Positions 17,115 to 63,631 of a DNA stretch of 64,000 bases are shown here, one piece after another. The notes beneath the pieces were generated by a model. It did not search any database and was not told the origin of the DNA. It saw only the letters and a list, made by a program, of their open reading frames with translations. The translations under genes were made by a program, and so were the position numbers. How positions within the stretch are numbered: position 1 is the stretch's first letter; every line of letters starts with the position of its first letter. Source of the DNA: an uncultured Pelagibacteraceae bacterium (GTDB taxonomy: Bacteria; Pseudomonadota; Alphaproteobacteria; Pelagibacterales; Pelagibacteraceae). The stretch is taken from assembly GCA_902555275.1 (NCBI GenBank), contig CACDRY010000002.1:4250-68249 (forward strand), in the 5' to 3' direction.

Positions 17115-18434
17115 ATGGAAAAAATACTCAAAAATTCCTGGGCATTATTCACAGGCATGGGTCTAATTATGATAGCCCACGGCTTTCAAGTTTCTTTACT
17201 TGGAGTGAGAGCTGTTTATGAAAGTTTCAGCTTAACAGCAACAGGCTTTATGTTATCAGGATATTTTGTAGGTTATTTTATAGGAGCAAAAACAGTTCCG
17301 ATTTTAGTTTCAAGAGTTGGTCATATAAGAGTATTTGCTGCTTTTGCATCAATTGCTTCTATCGTTGTTTTAGTGCACTCTATAATCATCAATCCATTTA
17401 CATGGTTTGTATTAAGAATTGCCTCAGGTTTTTCAATGGTATGTTTATATACAATTGCAGAAAGCTGGTTAAACGACCGAGCAAGCAATAAAAATAGAGG
17501 AAGTGTTTTATCAATTTATATGATCGTTCTTTACGCATCTATGGCGATTGGAATGTTTTTTTTAAACTTCAGTAAGCCAGAAAATTTTCAGCCATTTATA
17601 CTTGTTTCTTTATTCATGTCACTTTCACTTGTCCCAATTTTATTAACTAAGAAAAAACCACCAAAATTTAAAAAAATTATTGGAATGAAAATTAAAGAAC
17701 TTTATGAGGCCTCTCCTTTTGGAATAGTAAGTGCACTTTTATGTGGAATTTGTCACTCTGCAATGTTTGCTTTAATTGCTGTTTATGCAGCATCAATGAA
17801 TTTTAGTATTTTTGAAATTTCTTTTGTAACTTTTCTAATTGCTATTTCTGGAGCTATTTCCCAATGGCCTATTGGTAAACTATCAGATATTTATGACAGA
17901 AGAACAGTTACAGTATATTCTACGTTTGCTTCAGCTTTCTTTGCGCTATGTGCAATTTTTTCAGTTGGTACAATGCATTTACCTGATGGATTAGCTAGCT
18001 CAAAGTTTTGGTTTTATATTTTTACAGGTTTGTATGCTTTCTTTAGTCTTCCTATGTTTGCATTAATTTTTGCTCACACTAATGATTTTATAGCTAAAGA
18101 AAAATTTGTAGCTGCAGGTGCAGGTTTACAATTTACCTTTGGAATGGGTGCAATTAGTGGACCTTTTTTATGTTCTATGTTTATGGATTTAATAGGAGAG
18201 AATGGTTATTTTATATTTCTAATTATATTTCATTGTTTAATAGGAGCATATGGAGTTTACAGAATGAATGTTAGAGAGGTTATTGAAAACCCTGACTCTC
18301 AATTCACACCACTTCCTACGACAATAACACCTATTGGCTTAGAACTTAATCCAGCAACAGAACCTATTGAGGACCCGGTAAAACCAGTAGGAACCGAAGA
18401 AACAATAATTGTAGAGAATAACCCTTCCCAATAA
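17115..18434 (+). CDS. MFS transporter (YcaD-like)
   Basis: About 12 TM; RVGHIRVFAAFAS, AESWLN..RG, QWPIGKLSD.YDRR. Confidence 0.88.
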   Translation: MEKILKNSWALFTGMGLIMIAHGFQVSLLGVRAVYESFSLTATGFMLSGYFVGYFIGAKTVPILVSRVGHIRVFAAFASIASIVVLVHSIIINPFTWFVLRIASGFSMVCLYTIAESWLNDRASNKNRGSVLSIYMIVLYASMAIGMFFLNFSKPENFQPFILVSLFMSLSLVPILLTKKKPPKFKKIIGMKIKELYEASPFGIVSALLCGICHSAMFALIAVYAASMNFSIFEISFVTFLIAISGAISQWPIGKLSDIYDRRTVTVYSTFASAFFALCAIFSVGTMHLPDGLASSKFWFYIFTGLYAFFSLPMFALIFAHTNDFIAKEKFVAAGAGLQFTFGMGAISGPFLCSMFMDLIGENGYFIFLIIFHCLIGAYGVYRMNVREVIENPDSQFTPLPTTITPIGLELNPATEPIEDPVKPVGTEETIIVENNPSQ

Positions 18435-18475
18435 TTAAAATCTTATTTAAAATTTTTATTCTGCTAAAATAGTTT

Positions 18476-19486
18476 ATGACTAAAACTATAAATCTTGGAG
18501 TATTGGGTATTGATCATGGTCATATCTTCGACATGCTTGATGAGATGCTTAAAGAGGGATGTAGTTGTAATTATTTTTGGACACAAGGTTCTCCGTTAAT
18601 TTTAGATGAATTTAAAAAAAAATATCCTCAAATAAAAAGAGTAGATAATAAAAGTGATATTTTAAATGATGATACAATTGATATGATTTTAATTTCATCC
18701 ATTCCTAAAGATAGAGCTAATCTATCTATAGACGCAATGAAAGCTGGAAAAGATGTAATGGTTGACAAGCCAGGATGTACAACTCTTGAGCAACTTAATA
18801 ATCTAAAACAAACAGTTAAGGAGACAGGAAAAATTTGGTCAATTAATTTTTCAGAAAGATTTCATGTAGCAGCTGTTGCAAAAGCAGAAGAGCTAGTTAC
18901 TGAAGGTAAAATTGGTAAAGTAAAACAAACAATTGGCACGGGCCCTCACAGACAAGGCAATTATGAAAGACCTGATTGGTTTTATGATCGTATTAGTTAT
19001 GGTGGAATAATAACAGATATAGGCTCACATCAAATTCATCAATTTTTAGTATTTACAAATTCAAATGAAGCTAAAGTGAATCATGCGTTAGTTGAAAATA
19101 CTACTAAGAAAGAATTCGATGGTTTTCAAGATTTTGGGGAAGTTAATCTTTCTGGAAATGGTGGTCATGGATATGTCCGTTTAGATTGGTTTACTCCTGA
19201 TGCACTTCATACTTGGGGAGATGGAAGGTTATTTATACTGGGTGATAAAGGTTTTATTGAAATTAGAAAGTACACAGACCTAGCTAAATCTGAAAAAGGA
19301 AATCAGTTATATTTAGCAAATAACGATGAAGTTAAACATATTGACTGTTCAAATGTAAAACTCCCTTACTTTGCTAATTTAATTAACGATGTTTTAAATA
19401 GAACTGATACTGCTTGTTCACAAGAACTTACTTACTTATCAATGGAACTAGCAATTAAAGCTCAAGAATTAGCAGAAAAAAAATGA
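18476..19486 (+). CDS. Gfo/Idh/MocA-family oxidoreductase
   Basis: AGKDVMVDKPG, GGIITDIGSHQ. Confidence 0.85.
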   Translation: MTKTINLGVLGIDHGHIFDMLDEMLKEGCSCNYFWTQGSPLILDEFKKKYPQIKRVDNKSDILNDDTIDMILISSIPKDRANLSIDAMKAGKDVMVDKPGCTTLEQLNNLKQTVKETGKIWSINFSERFHVAAVAKAEELVTEGKIGKVKQTIGTGPHRQGNYERPDWFYDRISYGGIITDIGSHQIHQFLVFTNSNEAKVNHALVENTTKKEFDGFQDFGEVNLSGNGGHGYVRLDWFTPDALHTWGDGRLFILGDKGFIEIRKYTDLAKSEKGNQLYLANNDEVKHIDCSNVKLPYFANLINDVLNRTDTACSQELTYLSMELAIKAQELAEKK

Positions 19487-20559
19487 AAAAATATCAGGTA
19501 GCAATAATAGGAACTAATATAGGATCTAAACATTTTAAAGATTTTCAAAAAGTATCAGACCGATTTAGTGTTCATACATTGTGTGGTTTAACTAGAGATG
19601 CAATAGATAAAATATTGGCGTCAAATAATGATACTAAAATGTCATTAAACTTTGATGATGTATTAAAAGTAAAGGAAATAGACATAATTGATATTTGTCT
19701 CCCACCCCATTTACATTTTTCTGCGTGCAAAAAATCTCTTGAAGCTGGAAAGCATGTAATTTGTGAAAAACCATTGGTTTCAAGTCTTAAAGAAATTGAT
19801 GAGCTAGAAAACATTAGTAAAGAAACAGGAAAGATAATCTTTCCTGTATTCCAATATAGATATGGATTAGGATTTTCTAAATTTAAGGCACTAATAAAGT
19901 CAGGACTTGCTGGAAAACCTTTAATCGCCTCATTAGAAACTCATTGGAATAGAGGAAAAGATTATTACTCAAAACCTTGGCGAGGTACTTGGAATGGTGA
20001 ACAAGGAGGAGCAATTTTAAGTCATTCAATACATATTCATGACTTGGTGAGCATGATACTAGGACCAGTTTCAAATGTATTTGCAAAATTAACAACAAGA
20101 GTAAATGATATTGAGGTTGAAGACTGTGCATCTTTATCAATTGAAATGGAAGATGGAACACTGGTCACTAGCTCAATCACCCTTGGTGCAGCAAATGATA
20201 CCAGTAGACTAAAATTCTGTTTTGATGGACTGACTGTAGAATCGGGAGCATCTCCAGATAAACCTTATAATCCAGCTGATGATGAATGGATATTTTTACC
20301 AAGAGCTCCTATTTCACAAAGTCAAATTGATGAAGTATTGTCAAAAGTCGAAAAACCTAAATCATGGTACGCAGGAATGTTTGATGAAGTAGCAAAGAAA
20401 CTAGATGGCTCTTCAAGTGATGAGGTAACATTGTCAGATGCTAGAAAATCATTAGAGTTTGTAACTGCTGTTTACCAATCTTCAAGACAAAATATAAATA
20501 TCAAACTTCCAATTGATAAAAATAATCCATTCTATAACTCTTGGTTACCAAAAAATTAA
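19483..20559 (+). CDS. Gfo/Idh/MocA-family oxidoreductase
   Basis: AGKHVICEKPL, WRGTW..EQGGAILSHSIH, IEVED. Confidence 0.88.
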   Translation: MKKYQVAIIGTNIGSKHFKDFQKVSDRFSVHTLCGLTRDAIDKILASNNDTKMSLNFDDVLKVKEIDIIDICLPPHLHFSACKKSLEAGKHVICEKPLVSSLKEIDELENISKETGKIIFPVFQYRYGLGFSKFKALIKSGLAGKPLIASLETHWNRGKDYYSKPWRGTWNGEQGGAILSHSIHIHDLVSMILGPVSNVFAKLTTRVNDIEVEDCASLSIEMEDGTLVTSSITLGAANDTSRLKFCFDGLTVESGASPDKPYNPADDEWIFLPRAPISQSQIDEVLSKVEKPKSWYAGMFDEVAKKLDGSSSDEVTLSDARKSLEFVTAVYQSSRQNINIKLPIDKNNPFYNSWLPKN

Positions 20560-20644
20560 AAGAATAAAGAAAATGTGAATAAAGTAGCTTTGATGAAGGT
20601 TGTTCTAATTAAAAAATATATTAATGTAAGTAATATTAAAAAGT

Positions 20645-21130
20645 ATGCCTTCATTTGATGTTATAAGTAAAATCAATTATCAAGAGTTTGATAATGCTCT
20701 TGCTAATTGTTTAAGAGAAATTGCTAACCGATACGATTTTAAGGGGCTTAATATTTCTATTGAAAGAAAAGATAAAATAATAACTACACTAGCTCCAGAT
20801 GAATTAAAATTAAAACAAGTAAATGAATTGTTACAAGTTCACCTCATAAGAAGAAAAGTAGATCCAAGAGTAATAATTATTAAAAATTCAGAGGGTGCAG
20901 CTGGTAGAACTATAAGGCAGGTTAGTGAATTAGCTGAGGGTATAAGCCAAGAAAATGCTAAAAAGATTATTGCTAATGTAAAAAAACTAAAACTTAAAAT
21001 CCAAATTAAAATTCAAGGAGAAGAATTAAGAGCTCAAGGAAAGAAAAGAGACGATCTTCAAGAAGCAATATCTGCCATAGAAGCAATAGATATAGGGCTT
21101 CCGATTGAATTTATTAATTTTAGAGATTAA
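20645..21130 (+). CDS. yajQ: YajQ-family nucleotide/c-di-GMP-binding protein
   Basis: MPSFDVIS, RYDFKG, IQGEELR..GKKRDDLQ, FINFRD. Confidence 0.94.
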   Translation: MPSFDVISKINYQEFDNALANCLREIANRYDFKGLNISIERKDKIITTLAPDELKLKQVNELLQVHLIRRKVDPRVIIIKNSEGAAGRTIRQVSELAEGISQENAKKIIANVKKLKLKIQIKIQGEELRAQGKKRDDLQEAISAIEAIDIGLPIEFINFRD

Positions 21131-21136
21131 TTAAAC

Positions 21137-21259
21137 ATGATTGAAATTATTTTAGGTATATTCGTAATTCTTGTCTTGGGTTTTTATTTATTCAGACCTA
21201 CTTCAAAACAAGAAGAGAAAGATTTGAAATCTAAAAATAATTGGCGAGGTGGATTTTAA
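21137..21259 (+). CDS. small single-TM membrane protein, 40 aa (MIEIILGIFVILVLGFYLFRPTSKQEEKDLKSKNNWRGGF); below ORF-track cutoff
   Basis: ATG 21137 to TAA 21259 fills the gap exactly and abuts next ATG 21260; hydrophobic N-half, charged tail. Confidence 0.6.
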   Translation: MIEIILGIFVILVLGFYLFRPTSKQEEKDLKSKNNWRGGF

Positions 21260-22144
21260 ATGAAAAAAATTTTTGGGATTGTGATTCTAATCTTTTTTAC
21301 ATGTAATTTAGGTTATACAGAGCCTGTTACAATTAAAAAAACTAAGTGGCATCATATGGATATCAAAGAGCATTTTGAAATAGTCGATAAAAATGTTCGT
21401 GCTGGTAAATCAGCTCAAAAGTTTGAAATTAGACATGGTGAATGTAAAAAACAAGATTGTAAATGGGGTGCTCAAAGAACAGAAAGACATTTAAAAAAAC
21501 TTCATTACTCAAGTAAAAAATTTAAAGAACCAGTATTTTATGCTTTGAGTATATATATACCCGAAGATTTTGGATATGATTTCGTAGCATCTAAGATGTC
21601 TTTGTTTCAAGCTAAAATGAAAGGTGTAGATATGCCATTATGGATGGTTTCTACACAGGGTTCAGGCTTTCAAGTGAGATTAGGTCACTATAAGAGATGC
21701 CATGGTTTCTCTTTTAAAAAAGGTAGTTGGAATGATTTTATAGTTAAAACTAATTATAGTAGAGAAAGAATTAAAGGTGAAAAATATTTTGAGCTATGGT
21801 GGAATGGAGAACAGATTAATGAGTGCACCCATTATATTCCTTTTATAAAAAGTAAACATATTAAAGAGTCCAAAAGCCATGGGTGGAGCAGTAACAAACA
21901 ACAAATTAATATGAGATATGGTATTTATAAATTTAGAGTTGGTGATTACTTATCTCAAATAAATAAAAATAAACCAAAGGGAATGAAGACCATGACTCAA
22001 CCAAGTGGTCAAAAAAACATAATAAAACCTTTTAAATATAAATGGGAAAATAAAATTCCAACAACCGTAATGCTATTTGATGAAGTGAGATTTGGTAAAT
22101 CCTATGATGAAGTAGATATAAATAAGAACAAACCAGTTGATTAA
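21260..22144 (+). CDS. secreted polysaccharide-lyase-like (heparin lyase I/PL20-like beta-jelly-roll) protein
   Basis: Signal peptide; GKSAQKFEIR..., RTE, YALSIYIP, FQ.K, WNDF, LWWNG, RYGIY, FDEVR pattern. Confidence 0.6.
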   Translation: MKKIFGIVILIFFTCNLGYTEPVTIKKTKWHHMDIKEHFEIVDKNVRAGKSAQKFEIRHGECKKQDCKWGAQRTERHLKKLHYSSKKFKEPVFYALSIYIPEDFGYDFVASKMSLFQAKMKGVDMPLWMVSTQGSGFQVRLGHYKRCHGFSFKKGSWNDFIVKTNYSRERIKGEKYFELWWNGEQINECTHYIPFIKSKHIKESKSHGWSSNKQQINMRYGIYKFRVGDYLSQINKNKPKGMKTMTQPSGQKNIIKPFKYKWENKIPTTVMLFDEVRFGKSYDEVDINKNKPVD

Positions 22145-22224
22145 TAAATTAAAAAATCTTTAAAGTTTATGGTTCTGTGTTATAGGATTTTATTTAGAAA
22201 CTAGTCCCAAACTAGAGCAAGTTG

Positions 22225-22274
22225 AACAAATTCGTTGAAAATCATATTGATTAGGAATTTGTTGTGCATATACT
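22225..22274 (+). promoter_or_regulatory. nested inverted repeat overlapping a sigma70-like promoter for the 85-aa ORF
   Basis: AACAAATTC 22225-33 / GAATTTGTT 22255-63 with inner AATCA-tat-TGATT; TTGATT 22247-52, TATACT 22269-74. Confidence 0.45.
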
Positions 22275-22303
22275 AATTTAATTAATTAAAGAAAGGAAAA
22301 ACT

Positions 22304-22561
22304 ATGAACTTTGTTGGAACAACAACATATGAAGGAACTAAAAAAGATGCAGATGAATTATACAGTATATTTAAAGATGATCTTGCAAAATGCACGTCAT
22401 CATTTGAATGGGCACATATCCGTGAAGGTAAAATGATTTTTATTGCAAATGTTACTGATGAGGAAAAATTTTATGCCTTATTTGAAGATCAAAGATCTAA
22501 AGACTGGAACGCAAAGTTTAATGCTAAAGATGAAGCTTGGAAACTTGAGAAAATAATGTAA
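22304..22561 (+). CDS. hypothetical protein (85 aa)
   Basis: Clear SD (GAAAGGA), protein-like composition. Confidence 0.7.
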   Translation: MNFVGTTTYEGTKKDADELYSIFKDDLAKCTSSFEWAHIREGKMIFIANVTDEEKFYALFEDQRSKDWNAKFNAKDEAWKLEKIM

Positions 22562-22838: not shown

Positions 22839-23885
22839 TTAAGATTTAATTATATTTAAAAATGACTCTACATCATCTGGATGAGTATTCCAGGCAGTAA
22901 CTAATCGAACAGCTTTATTTTCCCACTCATCATCGTTAATTTTGTAACCATGCGAATTAAATTGATCAATTATTTTTTTTGGTATTTTGACAAAAACTTC
23001 ATTTGCATCTGTTGGGTAAGATAATTCAATATTTTTGTGTTTCAGTAAACCTTGGCTTAATTTTTTCCCCATAGCATTTGCATGCTTTGCATTTTTTAAC
23101 CAAACCTCATTTGAGATATAAGCATCTAATTGAGCTGATACGAAACGCATCTTTGAAATTAAATGACCTGCTCTTTTCATTAAAAAAGCTAGATTTCCAA
23201 CTAACTCTGGTTTAAAAAAAATAATGGCTTCTGCTGCTAGGCATCCATTTTTAGTTGCTCCAAATGATAGTACATCAATTCCAGACTTCCATGTCATTTC
23301 TGCTGGAGTACAGTTTAATGAAACTAATGCATTTGCAAATCTTGCTCCATCCATATGAATATTTAAATCATGTTTGTGAGCAATCTCAGATATTTTTTTT
23401 ATTTCATCTAAATTGTAAGCAACGCCTGTTTCACATAATTGAGTAATACTTACTGATGATGGTTGAGTATGATGAACCACGCCTTTTCCAGAGATATTAC
23501 TATCTAATTCTTCAGCTATAATTTTTCCATTATTACCGTCCAGATTTACTAACTTTGCACCTCCAGTATAAAATTCTGGAGCCCCACATTCATCTACATT
23601 TATATGGGAAAGTCTATGGCAATAGATATTTCCAAAAGAAGGAGTCATAGTTGATAAGGCTAAAGCATTAGCTGCTGTTCCTGATGCTGTTGGAAATACT
23701 ATAACTTCTTTTTCAAATATTTCTGAAAATTTATTTTGTAAGTTTTTCGACAACTCATCATTGCCATAGGGCGTTTTGTCATCCTCATTAGCTTTAAGAA
23801 GTGCATTTAAGACCTCTGGACATGCGCCCGTAACATTATCTGAAGCAAATTTTACTCTTTCTCTTTTTGTTTTTATCTGTGTCAC
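22839..23885 (-). CDS. ltaE: low-specificity L-threonine aldolase (PLP, beta-eliminating lyase family)
   Basis: FASDN, YGND, SGTAANAL, HINVDECGAPE, HMDGARFANA, SFGATKNG, SKMRF. Confidence 0.9.
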   Translation of the reverse strand: MTQIKTKRERVKFASDNVTGACPEVLNALLKANEDDKTPYGNDELSKNLQNKFSEIFEKEVIVFPTASGTAANALALSTMTPSFGNIYCHRLSHINVDECGAPEFYTGGAKLVNLDGNNGKIIAEELDSNISGKGVVHHTQPSSVSITQLCETGVAYNLDEIKKISEIAHKHDLNIHMDGARFANALVSLNCTPAEMTWKSGIDVLSFGATKNGCLAAEAIIFFKPELVGNLAFLMKRAGHLISKMRFVSAQLDAYISNEVWLKNAKHANAMGKKLSQGLLKHKNIELSYPTDANEVFVKIPKKIIDQFNSHGYKINDDEWENKAVRLVTAWNTHPDDVESFLNIIKS

Positions 23886-23887
23886 AA

Positions 23888-25003
23888 TTATTGTTTTGGA
23901 AAATAATCTTTTAATTGACCTTCTCTATAAACATCTGCTGTACAACAATGTAATCCACCTCCAAAAGCATAAGCATCTCTAAGCTCAACAGGAACAACCT
24001 CCATTCCTAATTTATCGAGTTGTTCTGCTTGGTATACTTCACTTTTTTCTACACATACAGTTTTAGAATCTAAAACTAAAACATTCATTGATAGCCATGT
24101 TGAAGAGTAACATAGAGGCGGGGGCTCGTTGTGTGCAGGTTGAGCACTATCAATAATTTCCCATCCGTTATTTTCAAACAATTTTCTTTGCTCTTTAGGA
24201 AGCCTTCTTTGAGGATTGTTAATTATTAAACCTTCCTTGATAGGTGTAAAAGTTGCATCTATATGAATTGGATAAGGATCACCTGGAAAATTAACAGCAT
24301 GAACCCTGTGATCTTTATAATGTCTTTTTAACCAATCAATTCCTTTTAAATTTGTTGTAAAACCATGTTGTACTACTAAATCTTTACCAAATCTTAAAAC
24401 GTCAGCAGCATCAAATAATGGCTCCTCTTCAGTGGTAACAAAATATCTATTTTCTGTCCATTCCAGTCTTTTTTGAATTCCTATTTTGTCTGATAAGTAA
24501 TCTTCTCTGTAATCCTCATCTGTTAATCTAGGTTTAGGAGCAGATTCGTGTCTCATATTTGGATCTAAATTATAATATTGCTTTAAAAGTGGTCGGTAAC
24601 ATAGATATTCAAACCATCGGCAACGATAACTCATGGTAGCCTCTAAAATTTCATTGCCAACAGTTAGCAAAACATCTCTAGGTGGCATGCATCCAAACAT
24701 CGTTTCCGCTTGCCAATCTGGTGTAGATGTTTTTTGATTAAAATCAATTGGATCTGGTCTATCAACTTTAATCCCTCTTTTTTTTAATATATTTGAGAAA
24801 TCATCTAAAAGCTGATTTGCTTTATCTACAGTATCTTTAGTTCTTGGACCAAATTTTCCTCTCATATCACTGTCTTCTGGAACTTTGGCATCTAATGCTG
24901 GCTCAGGGGCAGGTATACAAGTACCATCTGCTTTACCTATTATTACATGTTTCAATGGATCCCATTCATTCCAACTATTAACAATTACTTTTTCATTATT
25001 CAT
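23888..25003 (-). CDS. amidinotransferase, L-arginine:glycine amidinotransferase (AGAT)-like
   Basis: VNSWNEWDPL, PPRD, FDAAD, HIDATF, NP.R, SSTWLSMN, GGGLHC: Asp-His-Cys triad present. Confidence 0.9.
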   Translation of the reverse strand: MNNEKVIVNSWNEWDPLKHVIIGKADGTCIPAPEPALDAKVPEDSDMRGKFGPRTKDTVDKANQLLDDFSNILKKRGIKVDRPDPIDFNQKTSTPDWQAETMFGCMPPRDVLLTVGNEILEATMSYRCRWFEYLCYRPLLKQYYNLDPNMRHESAPKPRLTDEDYREDYLSDKIGIQKRLEWTENRYFVTTEEEPLFDAADVLRFGKDLVVQHGFTTNLKGIDWLKRHYKDHRVHAVNFPGDPYPIHIDATFTPIKEGLIINNPQRRLPKEQRKLFENNGWEIIDSAQPAHNEPPPLCYSSTWLSMNVLVLDSKTVCVEKSEVYQAEQLDKLGMEVVPVELRDAYAFGGGLHCCTADVYREGQLKDYFPKQ

Positions 25004-25004
25004 T

Positions 25005-25910
25005 TTAATTTAAACCTATAAATCTTCTATTAGACTGCATAATGAGGCTGTAGTAAAAAATTGACATAAAGATAAAAAATCCACCAATAATAGTATTCGT
25101 AGATGGGACTTCATTAATTCCCATCCATGGTAACCACACCCAGAATATTCCACCTATTACTTCAGTAAGTGAGAGTAAAGTTAGATCAGCTGCTGGAATG
25201 TTTTTTGATCCAATTGAGTATAATATTAAACCCATGCATACTAGAGTTCCATGGGTAGCAAATAAGGCTTCGTTTTTTCCAGTGGATAAAAAATTAGCAT
25301 CGTTCGACATAAGCATTACAGCAGAAAATATGAAACAGAAAAACCCTGCAAAGGCTACAGTAGTAAATTTTGGCGTTTCTTTTCTCCATCTAAGTGAAAC
25401 AGAAAAAATTGAGAAACCTAATGCAGAAATAAGTCCAAACACAAGCCCTGGCAATGAATTTTTACCAGAATTGTCAAAAGCCATTATACAAATACCTGCT
25501 GCTGCAACTACAATGGCAATCCATACTGTTAATGAAATTTTTTCTTTTAAAAATAAAAATCCTAATAAGGCTGTTATAAATGGCATTGCTGCAAGACAAA
25601 GTAAAGTGATAGCTGCTGTCGTATTAGTAATTGACCATATAAATGTTATCATTGCGGTACCAAGACCAATACCTCCAATTAAACCCGATATACCCACTTT
25701 AAAATAATTTTTATAAAACTCTTTTCCTTCCTCAAGGAATAAATACATATTAAGTAAAAGAAAAATAACTATTCCTCTTGTAAATAAATATTGCCAAGGA
25801 ACTGTTTCTGGCTGATCGATGTGCCTTACAACATATGGACCAAATGACCAAAAAATACCAGCAATTAATACGATTGGTATGGCTACTTTAGGATTTTTTA
25901 AATTTAGCAT
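25005..25910 (-). CDS. DMT/EamA-family transporter
   Basis: About 10 TM, FLFLKE, E.IGGIFWVW...EVP...GG. Confidence 0.87.
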   Translation of the reverse strand: MLNLKNPKVAIPIVLIAGIFWSFGPYVVRHIDQPETVPWQYLFTRGIVIFLLLNMYLFLEEGKEFYKNYFKVGISGLIGGIGLGTAMITFIWSITNTTAAITLLCLAAMPFITALLGFLFLKEKISLTVWIAIVVAAAGICIMAFDNSGKNSLPGLVFGLISALGFSIFSVSLRWRKETPKFTTVAFAGFFCFIFSAVMLMSNDANFLSTGKNEALFATHGTLVCMGLILYSIGSKNIPAADLTLLSLTEVIGGIFWVWLPWMGINEVPSTNTIIGGFFIFMSIFYYSLIMQSNRRFIGLN

Positions 25911-25988
25911 GTGCTATTTTTTTATTTAAGAAATATGAAAATATAAATATAAATTTGTATAATAACAATCAAATAAATACTCAAATTA

Positions 25989-63484: not shown

Positions 63485-63514
63485 TTATTATATTCAAACT
63501 ATTTATGGTTAAAG

Positions 63515-63539
63515 TTATCCACATGTATACAACATGTGG
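63515..63539. promoter_or_regulatory. perfect DnaA box (TTATCCACA) overlapping an 8-bp inverted repeat
   Basis: TTATCCACA 63515-63523; CCACATGT 63519-26 / ACATGTGG 63532-39. Confidence 0.5.
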
Positions 63540-63631
63540 TTTCGATGTTCACGTTTTGATTCACTTTTGATTCAGTTACAGACTCAAAATACAACCCGAT
63601 TGACACTATTAAATAACTTATGTATTTATTA

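Follow-up and report, generated by a model that had tools for sequence, protein, structure and literature searches.

What does an amidinotransferase of the AGAT (arginine:glycine amidinotransferase) family do in a marine SAR11 bacterium, when its gene is packed between those of a membrane transporter and a threonine aldolase? The question is raised by a 64,000-nucleotide stretch of DNA (hereafter, the window) of contig CACDRY010000002.1, from an uncultured Pelagibacteraceae bacterium (assembly GCA_902555275.1), in which the three genes lie on the minus strand with gaps of 1 bp (transporter/amidinotransferase) and 2 bp (amidinotransferase/aldolase). The answer that we favour, with a probability of roughly 45%, is that the operon salvages guanidino acids: the amidino group of one of them, most simply guanidinoacetate, would be donated to ornithine, yielding glycine and arginine. 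The three open reading frames (ORFs) reported by a first-pass annotation of the window were confirmed at the coordinates given below, and the gene identities and operon-like packing that it assigned proved right by Pfam, phmmer and Protein Data Bank (PDB) matches.

25005..25910, minus strand: membrane transporter of the EamA/DMT family, 301 aa, first in the operon
23888..25003, minus strand: AGAT-family amidinotransferase, 371 aa, second gene of the operon
22839..23885, minus strand: low-specificity L-threonine/phenylserine aldolase, a pyridoxal phosphate (PLP) enzyme, 348 aa, third gene of the operon
25911..25988, 78 bp: divergent intergenic region between the transporter and a NifU-like gene, presumed operon promoter

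The chemistry of the middle gene product can be approached through its characterised relatives. It matches human AGAT (1jdw) at 7e-89 by phmmer, and SxtG (4e-65), HsvA (4e-59) and StrB1 (3e-49) less closely. Its AlphaFold2 model (predicted local distance difference test, pLDDT, 94.6; predicted template-modelling score, pTM, 0.93) was aligned by Foldseek with 4jdw at TM-scores of 0.91/0.93, a root-mean-square deviation (rmsd) of 2.0 Å and 42% identity over the structural alignment, the best matches (4jdw, 2jdx and 1jdw) spanning TM-scores of 0.90-0.94 and rmsd values of 1.7-2.0 Å; the modelled fold is the five-fold β/α propeller (pentein) of AGAT. Human residue numbers were taken from the HMMER alignment and checked against the published flap D298-P-N300-P-M302-H303. 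On this basis the catalytic triad Asp254/His303/Cys407 is conserved as D198/H247/C353 (H247 and C353 being invariant, and D198 nearly so, in 31 diverse homologues), the guanidino-binding Asp170/Asp305 as D110/D249, the substrate-binding Arg322 as R266, followed here by a two-residue insertion, and the substrate-binding Ser354/Ser355 as S300/S301, the roles of Asp170/Asp305, Arg322 and Ser354/Ser355 being those of the AGAT literature. Roles of AGAT substrate residues are cited in PMC4887976. The motifs FDAAD, HIDAT, GGGLHC, PRD, NPQR and SSTWLSMN, picked out at first pass, are all present in the protein. The sequence thus has an intact AGAT-type catalytic apparatus, with all the catalytic and arginine/ornithine-binding residues kept.

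Where the SAR11 protein departs from the glycine-specific vertebrate enzyme is the 300-flap, in which Asn300 and Met302 are replaced by Tyr244 and Ile246 (flap D242-P-Y244-P-I246). The first-pass annotation had set YPIH opposite the human NPMH, a placement that the HMMER alignment reproduces, and had seen in it the hint of an altered acceptor pocket; this second step is weak, since CyrA/AoaA, of cylindrospermopsin synthesis, have Phe and Ser at the two flap positions and yet are strict Arg:Gly amidinotransferases (PMC4887976, PMC3684758). AmtA keeps the flap Met and yet rejects glycine (PMC4887976, PMC3684758), and the flap is therefore not predictive of the acceptor. Compared through published residues, CyrA and the SAR11 protein share an aromatic residue at the human Asn300 position (Phe245 and Tyr244, respectively), whereas the Ser of CyrA is Ile here. 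Broadly, the protein is like vertebrate AGAT/GATM (EC 2.1.4.1; 1jdw/4jdw) in fold, triad, the two guanidino-binding aspartates, the arginine and the serine pair; it differs in the flap, in the insertion after Arg266, in having no mitochondrial presequence and no recognised GAMT (guanidinoacetate methyltransferase) partner, in forming a deep clade of its own and in that its gene shares an operon with transporter and aldolase genes. SxtG, HsvA, StrB1 and AmtA, from secondary metabolism or virulence, share family and fold with it, but their similarity is below that of AGAT, their acceptors are other than glycine, and the SAR11 gene has no biosynthetic-cluster neighbours. In this sense, Pfam scans of 20 other ORFs (13996-35609) returned glutathione synthesis, transporters, oxidoreductases, a 2-hydroxyacid dehydrogenase-family protein (FDH), MsrA and similar functions, and no domains of non-ribosomal peptide synthetases (NRPS) or polyketide synthases (PKS), as had been noticed at first pass; unlike CyrA, which is encoded in an NRPS/PKS toxin cluster, the locus is not a secondary-metabolite amidinotransferase cluster of the CyrA/SxtG/StrB1 type.

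A pathway is suggested by the neighbours, among them one that the window does not have. Synteny was surveyed in 80 named Pelagibacter loci (amidinotransferase identity, 89-98%). The transporter stands upstream of the amidinotransferase, directly or with one gene between, in 73 of the 75 loci in which this could be resolved, and the intervening gene, present in 45 of the 80, is a true creatinase (P. putida creatinase match, 1.2e-159), a catabolic enzyme acting on N-methyl-guanidinoacetate. The aldolase follows directly downstream on the same strand in 34 of the 80 loci, the remaining ones being without it. The window's order, transporter-amidinotransferase-aldolase, was found in 16 loci, and the four-gene order transporter-creatinase-amidinotransferase-aldolase in another 16 (17 with one cut at a contig end upstream of the creatinase). 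Furthermore, in a 61-genome sample all but two of the 13 copies of creatinase (11) and all but one of the 12 of the aldolase (11) adjoin the amidinotransferase. By tblastn coordinates, about 4-26 bp separate creatinase from amidinotransferase and 3-19 bp amidinotransferase from aldolase; packing as tight as the 1 and 2 bp of the window recurs across species, and an order so tight and co-oriented, repeated in many species-level genomes, is not due to chance. The genomic frame is conserved as well: GshB-EamA-MFS, variable genes, the block aldolase/amidinotransferase/(creatinase)/transporter, and then the divergent NifU-HPP-FDH-MsrA. Linkage in other genomes, which the first-pass annotation had expected to be conserved, is hence strong within the genus (for the transporter and for the aldolase copies alike), and is absent in the second SAR11 family, the Rhodobacterales and the Rhizobiales.

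The four-gene form occurs in the cultured HIMB123, HIMB1748, HTCC8051, nBUS_49, Uisw_130, HIMB1427 and HIMB1463. The window shares its order and genomic frame, with an orthologous transporter (69-74% identity), amidinotransferase (92-93%) and aldolase (78-86%), and differs from it in the missing creatinase: the transporter abuts the amidinotransferase, and no creatinase was found at E≤1e-60 in the rest of the genome, which is 83% complete and whose best M24 match is 28% identical to SAR11 creatinase. The window's locus is not, by itself, a creatine-degradation module.

A second type of amidinotransferase (copy B), 74% identical to that of the window, was found in two genomes of the genus, G004 and G027. 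In G004 (L017:46-8559) it is inserted into a same-strand operon, in the order BHMT-like (betaine-homocysteine) methyltransferase, 801-aa DAO+GCV_T dehydrogenase of the dimethylglycine/sarcosine dehydrogenase type, copy B, METTL27-like methyltransferase, GbcA-like Rieske oxygenase, SET protein, DddP-like M24 protein and small P-loop kinase; in the same genome the window-type transporter and aldolase are adjacent, the amidinotransferase being gone from between them. In G027 (L109:509-6000, contig C22), copy B is followed by an unrelated EamA/DMT transporter (23% identity to the window's) that weakly matches the RhtA threonine/homoserine exporter, and then by a DIOX_N+2OG-Fe(II) oxygenase, a luciferase-like monooxygenase and an acetolactate-synthase/Xsc-like thiamine pyrophosphate (TPP) enzyme, possibly a distinct module for guanidino or sulfonate compounds. 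The amidinotransferase is, then, paired with a DMT carrier twice, and lies repeatedly beside enzymes of pathways ending in glycine. The window's own genome also has a BHMT/dehydrogenase operon of the G004 type (L108:5108-12458, contig C5), without an amidinotransferase.

Creatinase and amidinotransferase both act on N-amidino-glycines behind one transporter, and the simplest reading is therefore a module that takes up creatine or guanidinoacetate and removes its amidino group. In the proposed mechanism, the DMT carrier would move a small guanidino acid, or else the reaction's amino-acid partner, over the inner membrane. The amidino group of the guanidino acid, most simply guanidinoacetate, would pass onto Cys353 and from there to ornithine, in the direction and with the substrates that we infer, releasing glycine and making arginine without ATP and without loss of nitrogen as urea. 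The aldolase would be a parallel glycine route, from threonine or other β-hydroxy amino acids as its probable physiological substrates. In the sister genomes, the inserted creatinase would add the steps from creatine to sarcosine to glycine, the window's genome carrying a creatinase-free version of the module. SAR11 bacteria have a conditional glycine requirement, for which an outside supply of glycine or of a precursor is needed.

Import followed by transamidination in reverse, to glycine and arginine, had been one of two proposals made at first pass. It is favoured here because a catabolic creatinase lies inside the operon in more than half of the surveyed loci (45/80) and no urease was found that would recover urea nitrogen; this is support from context and falls short of proof, and the direction of transamidination is what we infer from it. 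By the NCBIfam cut-off, the only arginase-family gene of the window's genome (L110:593-1552, contig C8) is an agmatinase; no arginase proper and no urease alpha subunit were found in this genome (83% complete), and urease is missing from the complete genome G013 too. Urea-releasing routes would therefore waste nitrogen. An arginase bypass, from arginine to ornithine and urea via creatinase, was also considered, and was dropped with no urease found and no creatinase in the genome.

Of the two flanking proteins, the transporter carries two EamA repeats in about 300 aa (Pfam EamA, 3.7e-18, 66.6 bits against a cut-off of 28.2) and by these is assigned to the DMT/EamA family, its substrate not being readable from the sequence; against the NCBIfam 2A78 carboxylate/amino acid/amine transporter model it scores 65 bits, under the cut-off. 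The aldolase is a Beta_elim_lyase protein (PF01212, 1.9e-57, 195 bits against a cut-off of 27) that matches the P. putida phenylserine aldolase 1v72 over its full length (5.9e-109), as well as L-threonine aldolases in the PDB (7yvr, 3e-103; 5vye, 3e-77; 9l9g was also matched). Its Lys212, within GATKNG, aligns with the identical motif of 1v72 and is presumably the PLP-binding, Schiff-base lysine. The NCBIfam equivalogs for the E. coli-type LtaE (42 bits against 312) and GntG (67 bits against 230) are not reached; distant from E. coli LtaE and alike to 1v72 and the Pseudomonas-type L-threonine aldolases, the protein belongs to the Pseudomonas-type subfamily.

Outside the genus, the amidinotransferase is found in a different setting. 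It is present in 51 of the 61 SAR11 genomes searched, in 19 of the 20 high-quality ones and in two families; close homologues number in the thousands in the protein database, Rhodobacterales and Rhizobiales proteins at about 77-80% identity among them. Its neighbours in the second SAR11 family are a FAD monooxygenase on one side and rodA/pbp2/mreC on the other; in seven non-SAR11 contexts (Aliiroseovarius, Rhizobiales, Rhodobacter sp. and four metagenomic contigs) the gene stands alone among unrelated neighbours, none of which is common to the seven. A quick maximum-likelihood (ML) tree, with clades anchored via PDB searches, places the SAR11 and other alphaproteobacterial sequences together in a single tight clade with a deep branch to itself. 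Against human AGAT, an SxtG-like representative scores 329 bits and the SAR11 protein 302, other clades scoring as high or higher; a best match to AGAT is therefore not orthology. The sequences from Rhodobacterales and Rhizobiales fall inside the diversity of SAR11, their grouping with the window's genus, to the exclusion of the second SAR11 family, having an SH-aLRT of 97; this position in the quick tree suggests gene transfer among marine Alphaproteobacteria.

Several of these observations, and some others, weigh against guanidino-acid salvage. The gene is near-core and stands alone elsewhere, and its basic role needs none of the operon neighbours. Transamidination is freely reversible, and context therefore cannot fix its direction. 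The genome has argG, and arginine is therefore makeable by the usual route. Characterised DMT/EamA carriers are mostly exporters, which fits product export. The aldolase borders a variable island and stays beside the transporter in G004 with no amidinotransferase between, so that its linkage may be partly positional. On the supporting side stands expression: contigs assembled from the seawater metatranscriptomes of four studies extend over all three genes, and the aldolase/amidinotransferase junction is bridged by RNA contigs in three runs, with at least 37 letters on each side; among the RNA contigs listed, none bridges the transporter/amidinotransferase junction with at least 31 letters on each side, which is not counter-evidence to co-transcription. 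Such contigs may carry DNA, and one that spans two genes does not prove a single transcript; the support that they lend to co-transcription is weak.

The same reaction could run the other way, as the second proposal of the first-pass annotation had it: the aldolase would provide glycine, ornithine and either guanidinoacetate or some other guanidino compound would be made from arginine and glycine, and the DMT carrier would export this compound or handle ornithine. The best characterised match of the enzyme, vertebrate AGAT, works in this synthetic direction, and CyrA, with an aromatic flap residue like that of the SAR11 protein, is strictly Arg:Gly; DMT relatives are mostly exporters, as noted above, copy B has its weakly RhtA-like carrier, and a near-core, stand-alone gene in many marine Alphaproteobacteria fits housekeeping synthesis. 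We nonetheless consider biosynthesis and export unlikely. A glycine- and nitrogen-limited oligotroph would be spending glycine and arginine, and a catabolic creatinase inside the operon makes little sense for synthesis. Nor was a guanidinoacetate methyltransferase recognised to take the product further: beside copy B there is a methyltransferase that matches METTL27 (1e-20) and, weakly, glycine/sarcosine N-methyltransferase, with no GAMT structure even at E≤1.

Another set of alternatives keeps the chemistry and changes the partners, to sarcosine/creatine, taurine/taurocyamine, β-alanine or γ-aminobutyric acid (GABA) with the corresponding guanidino acids, or lysine/homoarginine. The acceptor is not assignable from the sequence, and the recurring neighbours (creatinase, aldolase, demethylation enzymes) all converge on glycine; we hold such a shift of partners to be improbable as well. 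It would account for Y244 and I246, the flap residues at the two specificity positions, both unlike those of human AGAT, and for the two-residue insertion after R266; the separate deep branch and the higher score of the SxtG-like representative (329 against 302 bits) remove AGAT orthology as a default, AmtA shows that near relatives can reject glycine wholly, and copy B of G027 lies beside oxygenases and an acetolactate-synthase/Xsc-like TPP enzyme. Sarcosine, on the other hand, is a secondary amine, and is not known to be accepted by AGAT, which counts against this particular partner. Field tracing points toward it: when North Pacific communities were given labelled glycine betaine, Boysen et al. 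found 13C3,15N-creatine, labelled as if from sarcosine, for which they proposed an "unidentified enzyme" or else creatinase in reverse (PMC9321204). That the SAR11/alphaproteobacterial clade is an amidino-salvage enzyme of wider or shifted range, including arginine + sarcosine ⇌ ornithine + creatine, is in our judgement quite doubtful. Were it true, and sarcosine accepted, the clade would be the enzyme behind the North Pacific creatine formed from sarcosine (PMC9321204), and a sarcosine/creatine range would mean ATP-free arginine from ornithine and dissolved guanidino compounds in the ocean's most abundant bacteria.

Very unlikely, finally, is that there is no shared pathway at all, and that a near-core amidinotransferase merely borders a variable island, with the transporter and the aldolase as unrelated amino-acid genes kept close by streamlining: SAR11 genomes do pack unrelated genes tightly, the stretch from amidinotransferase to MFS varies between strains, the linkage is absent outside the genus and one genome (G005) has what may be an aldolase pseudogene, but the aldolase lies on the operon strand directly after the amidinotransferase whereas the rest of the island is encoded on the other strand, the creatinase is inserted precisely inside the operon, some 4-26 bp from the amidinotransferase, and an independent amidinotransferase-DMT pair exists.

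The cluster had been proposed at first pass to be undescribed, and this agrees with the literature: a search on SAR11/Pelagibacter with amidinotransferase, guanidino and creatine or creatinase found no paper describing the gene or the operon. One preprint merely lists the KEGG orthologue as the step from taurine to taurocyamine, and the study of SAR11 one-carbon metabolism by Sun et al. (2011) makes no mention of creatinase, amidinotransferase or threonine aldolase. Proteins of this amidinotransferase family (P0011, P0039, P0096 and P0107, among others) are named "serine/threonine protein kinase" by NCBI and glycine amidinotransferase by JGI; the kinase name looks like a systematic misannotation, and this label in the NCBI pipeline makes the family invisible in many annotation-based surveys. 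SAR11 is the most abundant heterotroph of the sea. In it, a near-universal, highly conserved and transcribed amidinotransferase, packed with a transporter and with enzymes that yield glycine, points to a flux that has gone unmeasured, through which glycine and arginine pools could be fed by guanidinoacetate, creatine and similar compounds of phytoplankton and animal origin.

With regard to the remaining features of the locus, the aldolase starts at a GTG, 2 bp past the amidinotransferase stop; relatives have ATG at the homologous position, which supports this start. In the genome G005 (C7:21907-22948), the downstream aldolase has in-frame stops, as a pseudogene or through a sequencing error, next to an amidinotransferase 99% identical to that of the window. 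Between the aldolase and the conserved MFS gene (17115-22561), the window has a small variable island whose content differs between Pelagibacter genomes, here hyp85, a 294-aa protein without a Pfam match, DUF520 and two GFO/IDH/MocA oxidoreductases; of the variable genes, the aldolase alone lies on the operon strand. The G+C content of the window is about 24-34% (2-kb bins). In the 78-bp intergenic region there is a minus-strand promoter-like hexamer pair at 25968-25940 (9/12 matches); sites of this kind were not commoner in the promoter/terminator scan than in shuffled sequences (they were fewer), so that the pair is weak evidence and the scan uninformative. No Rfam element, the glycine riboswitch included, was found at the operon or in this intergenic region, and the sole Rfam match in the window is the SAR11_0636 small RNA (RF01827, 111 bits), on the minus strand at 63507-63596.

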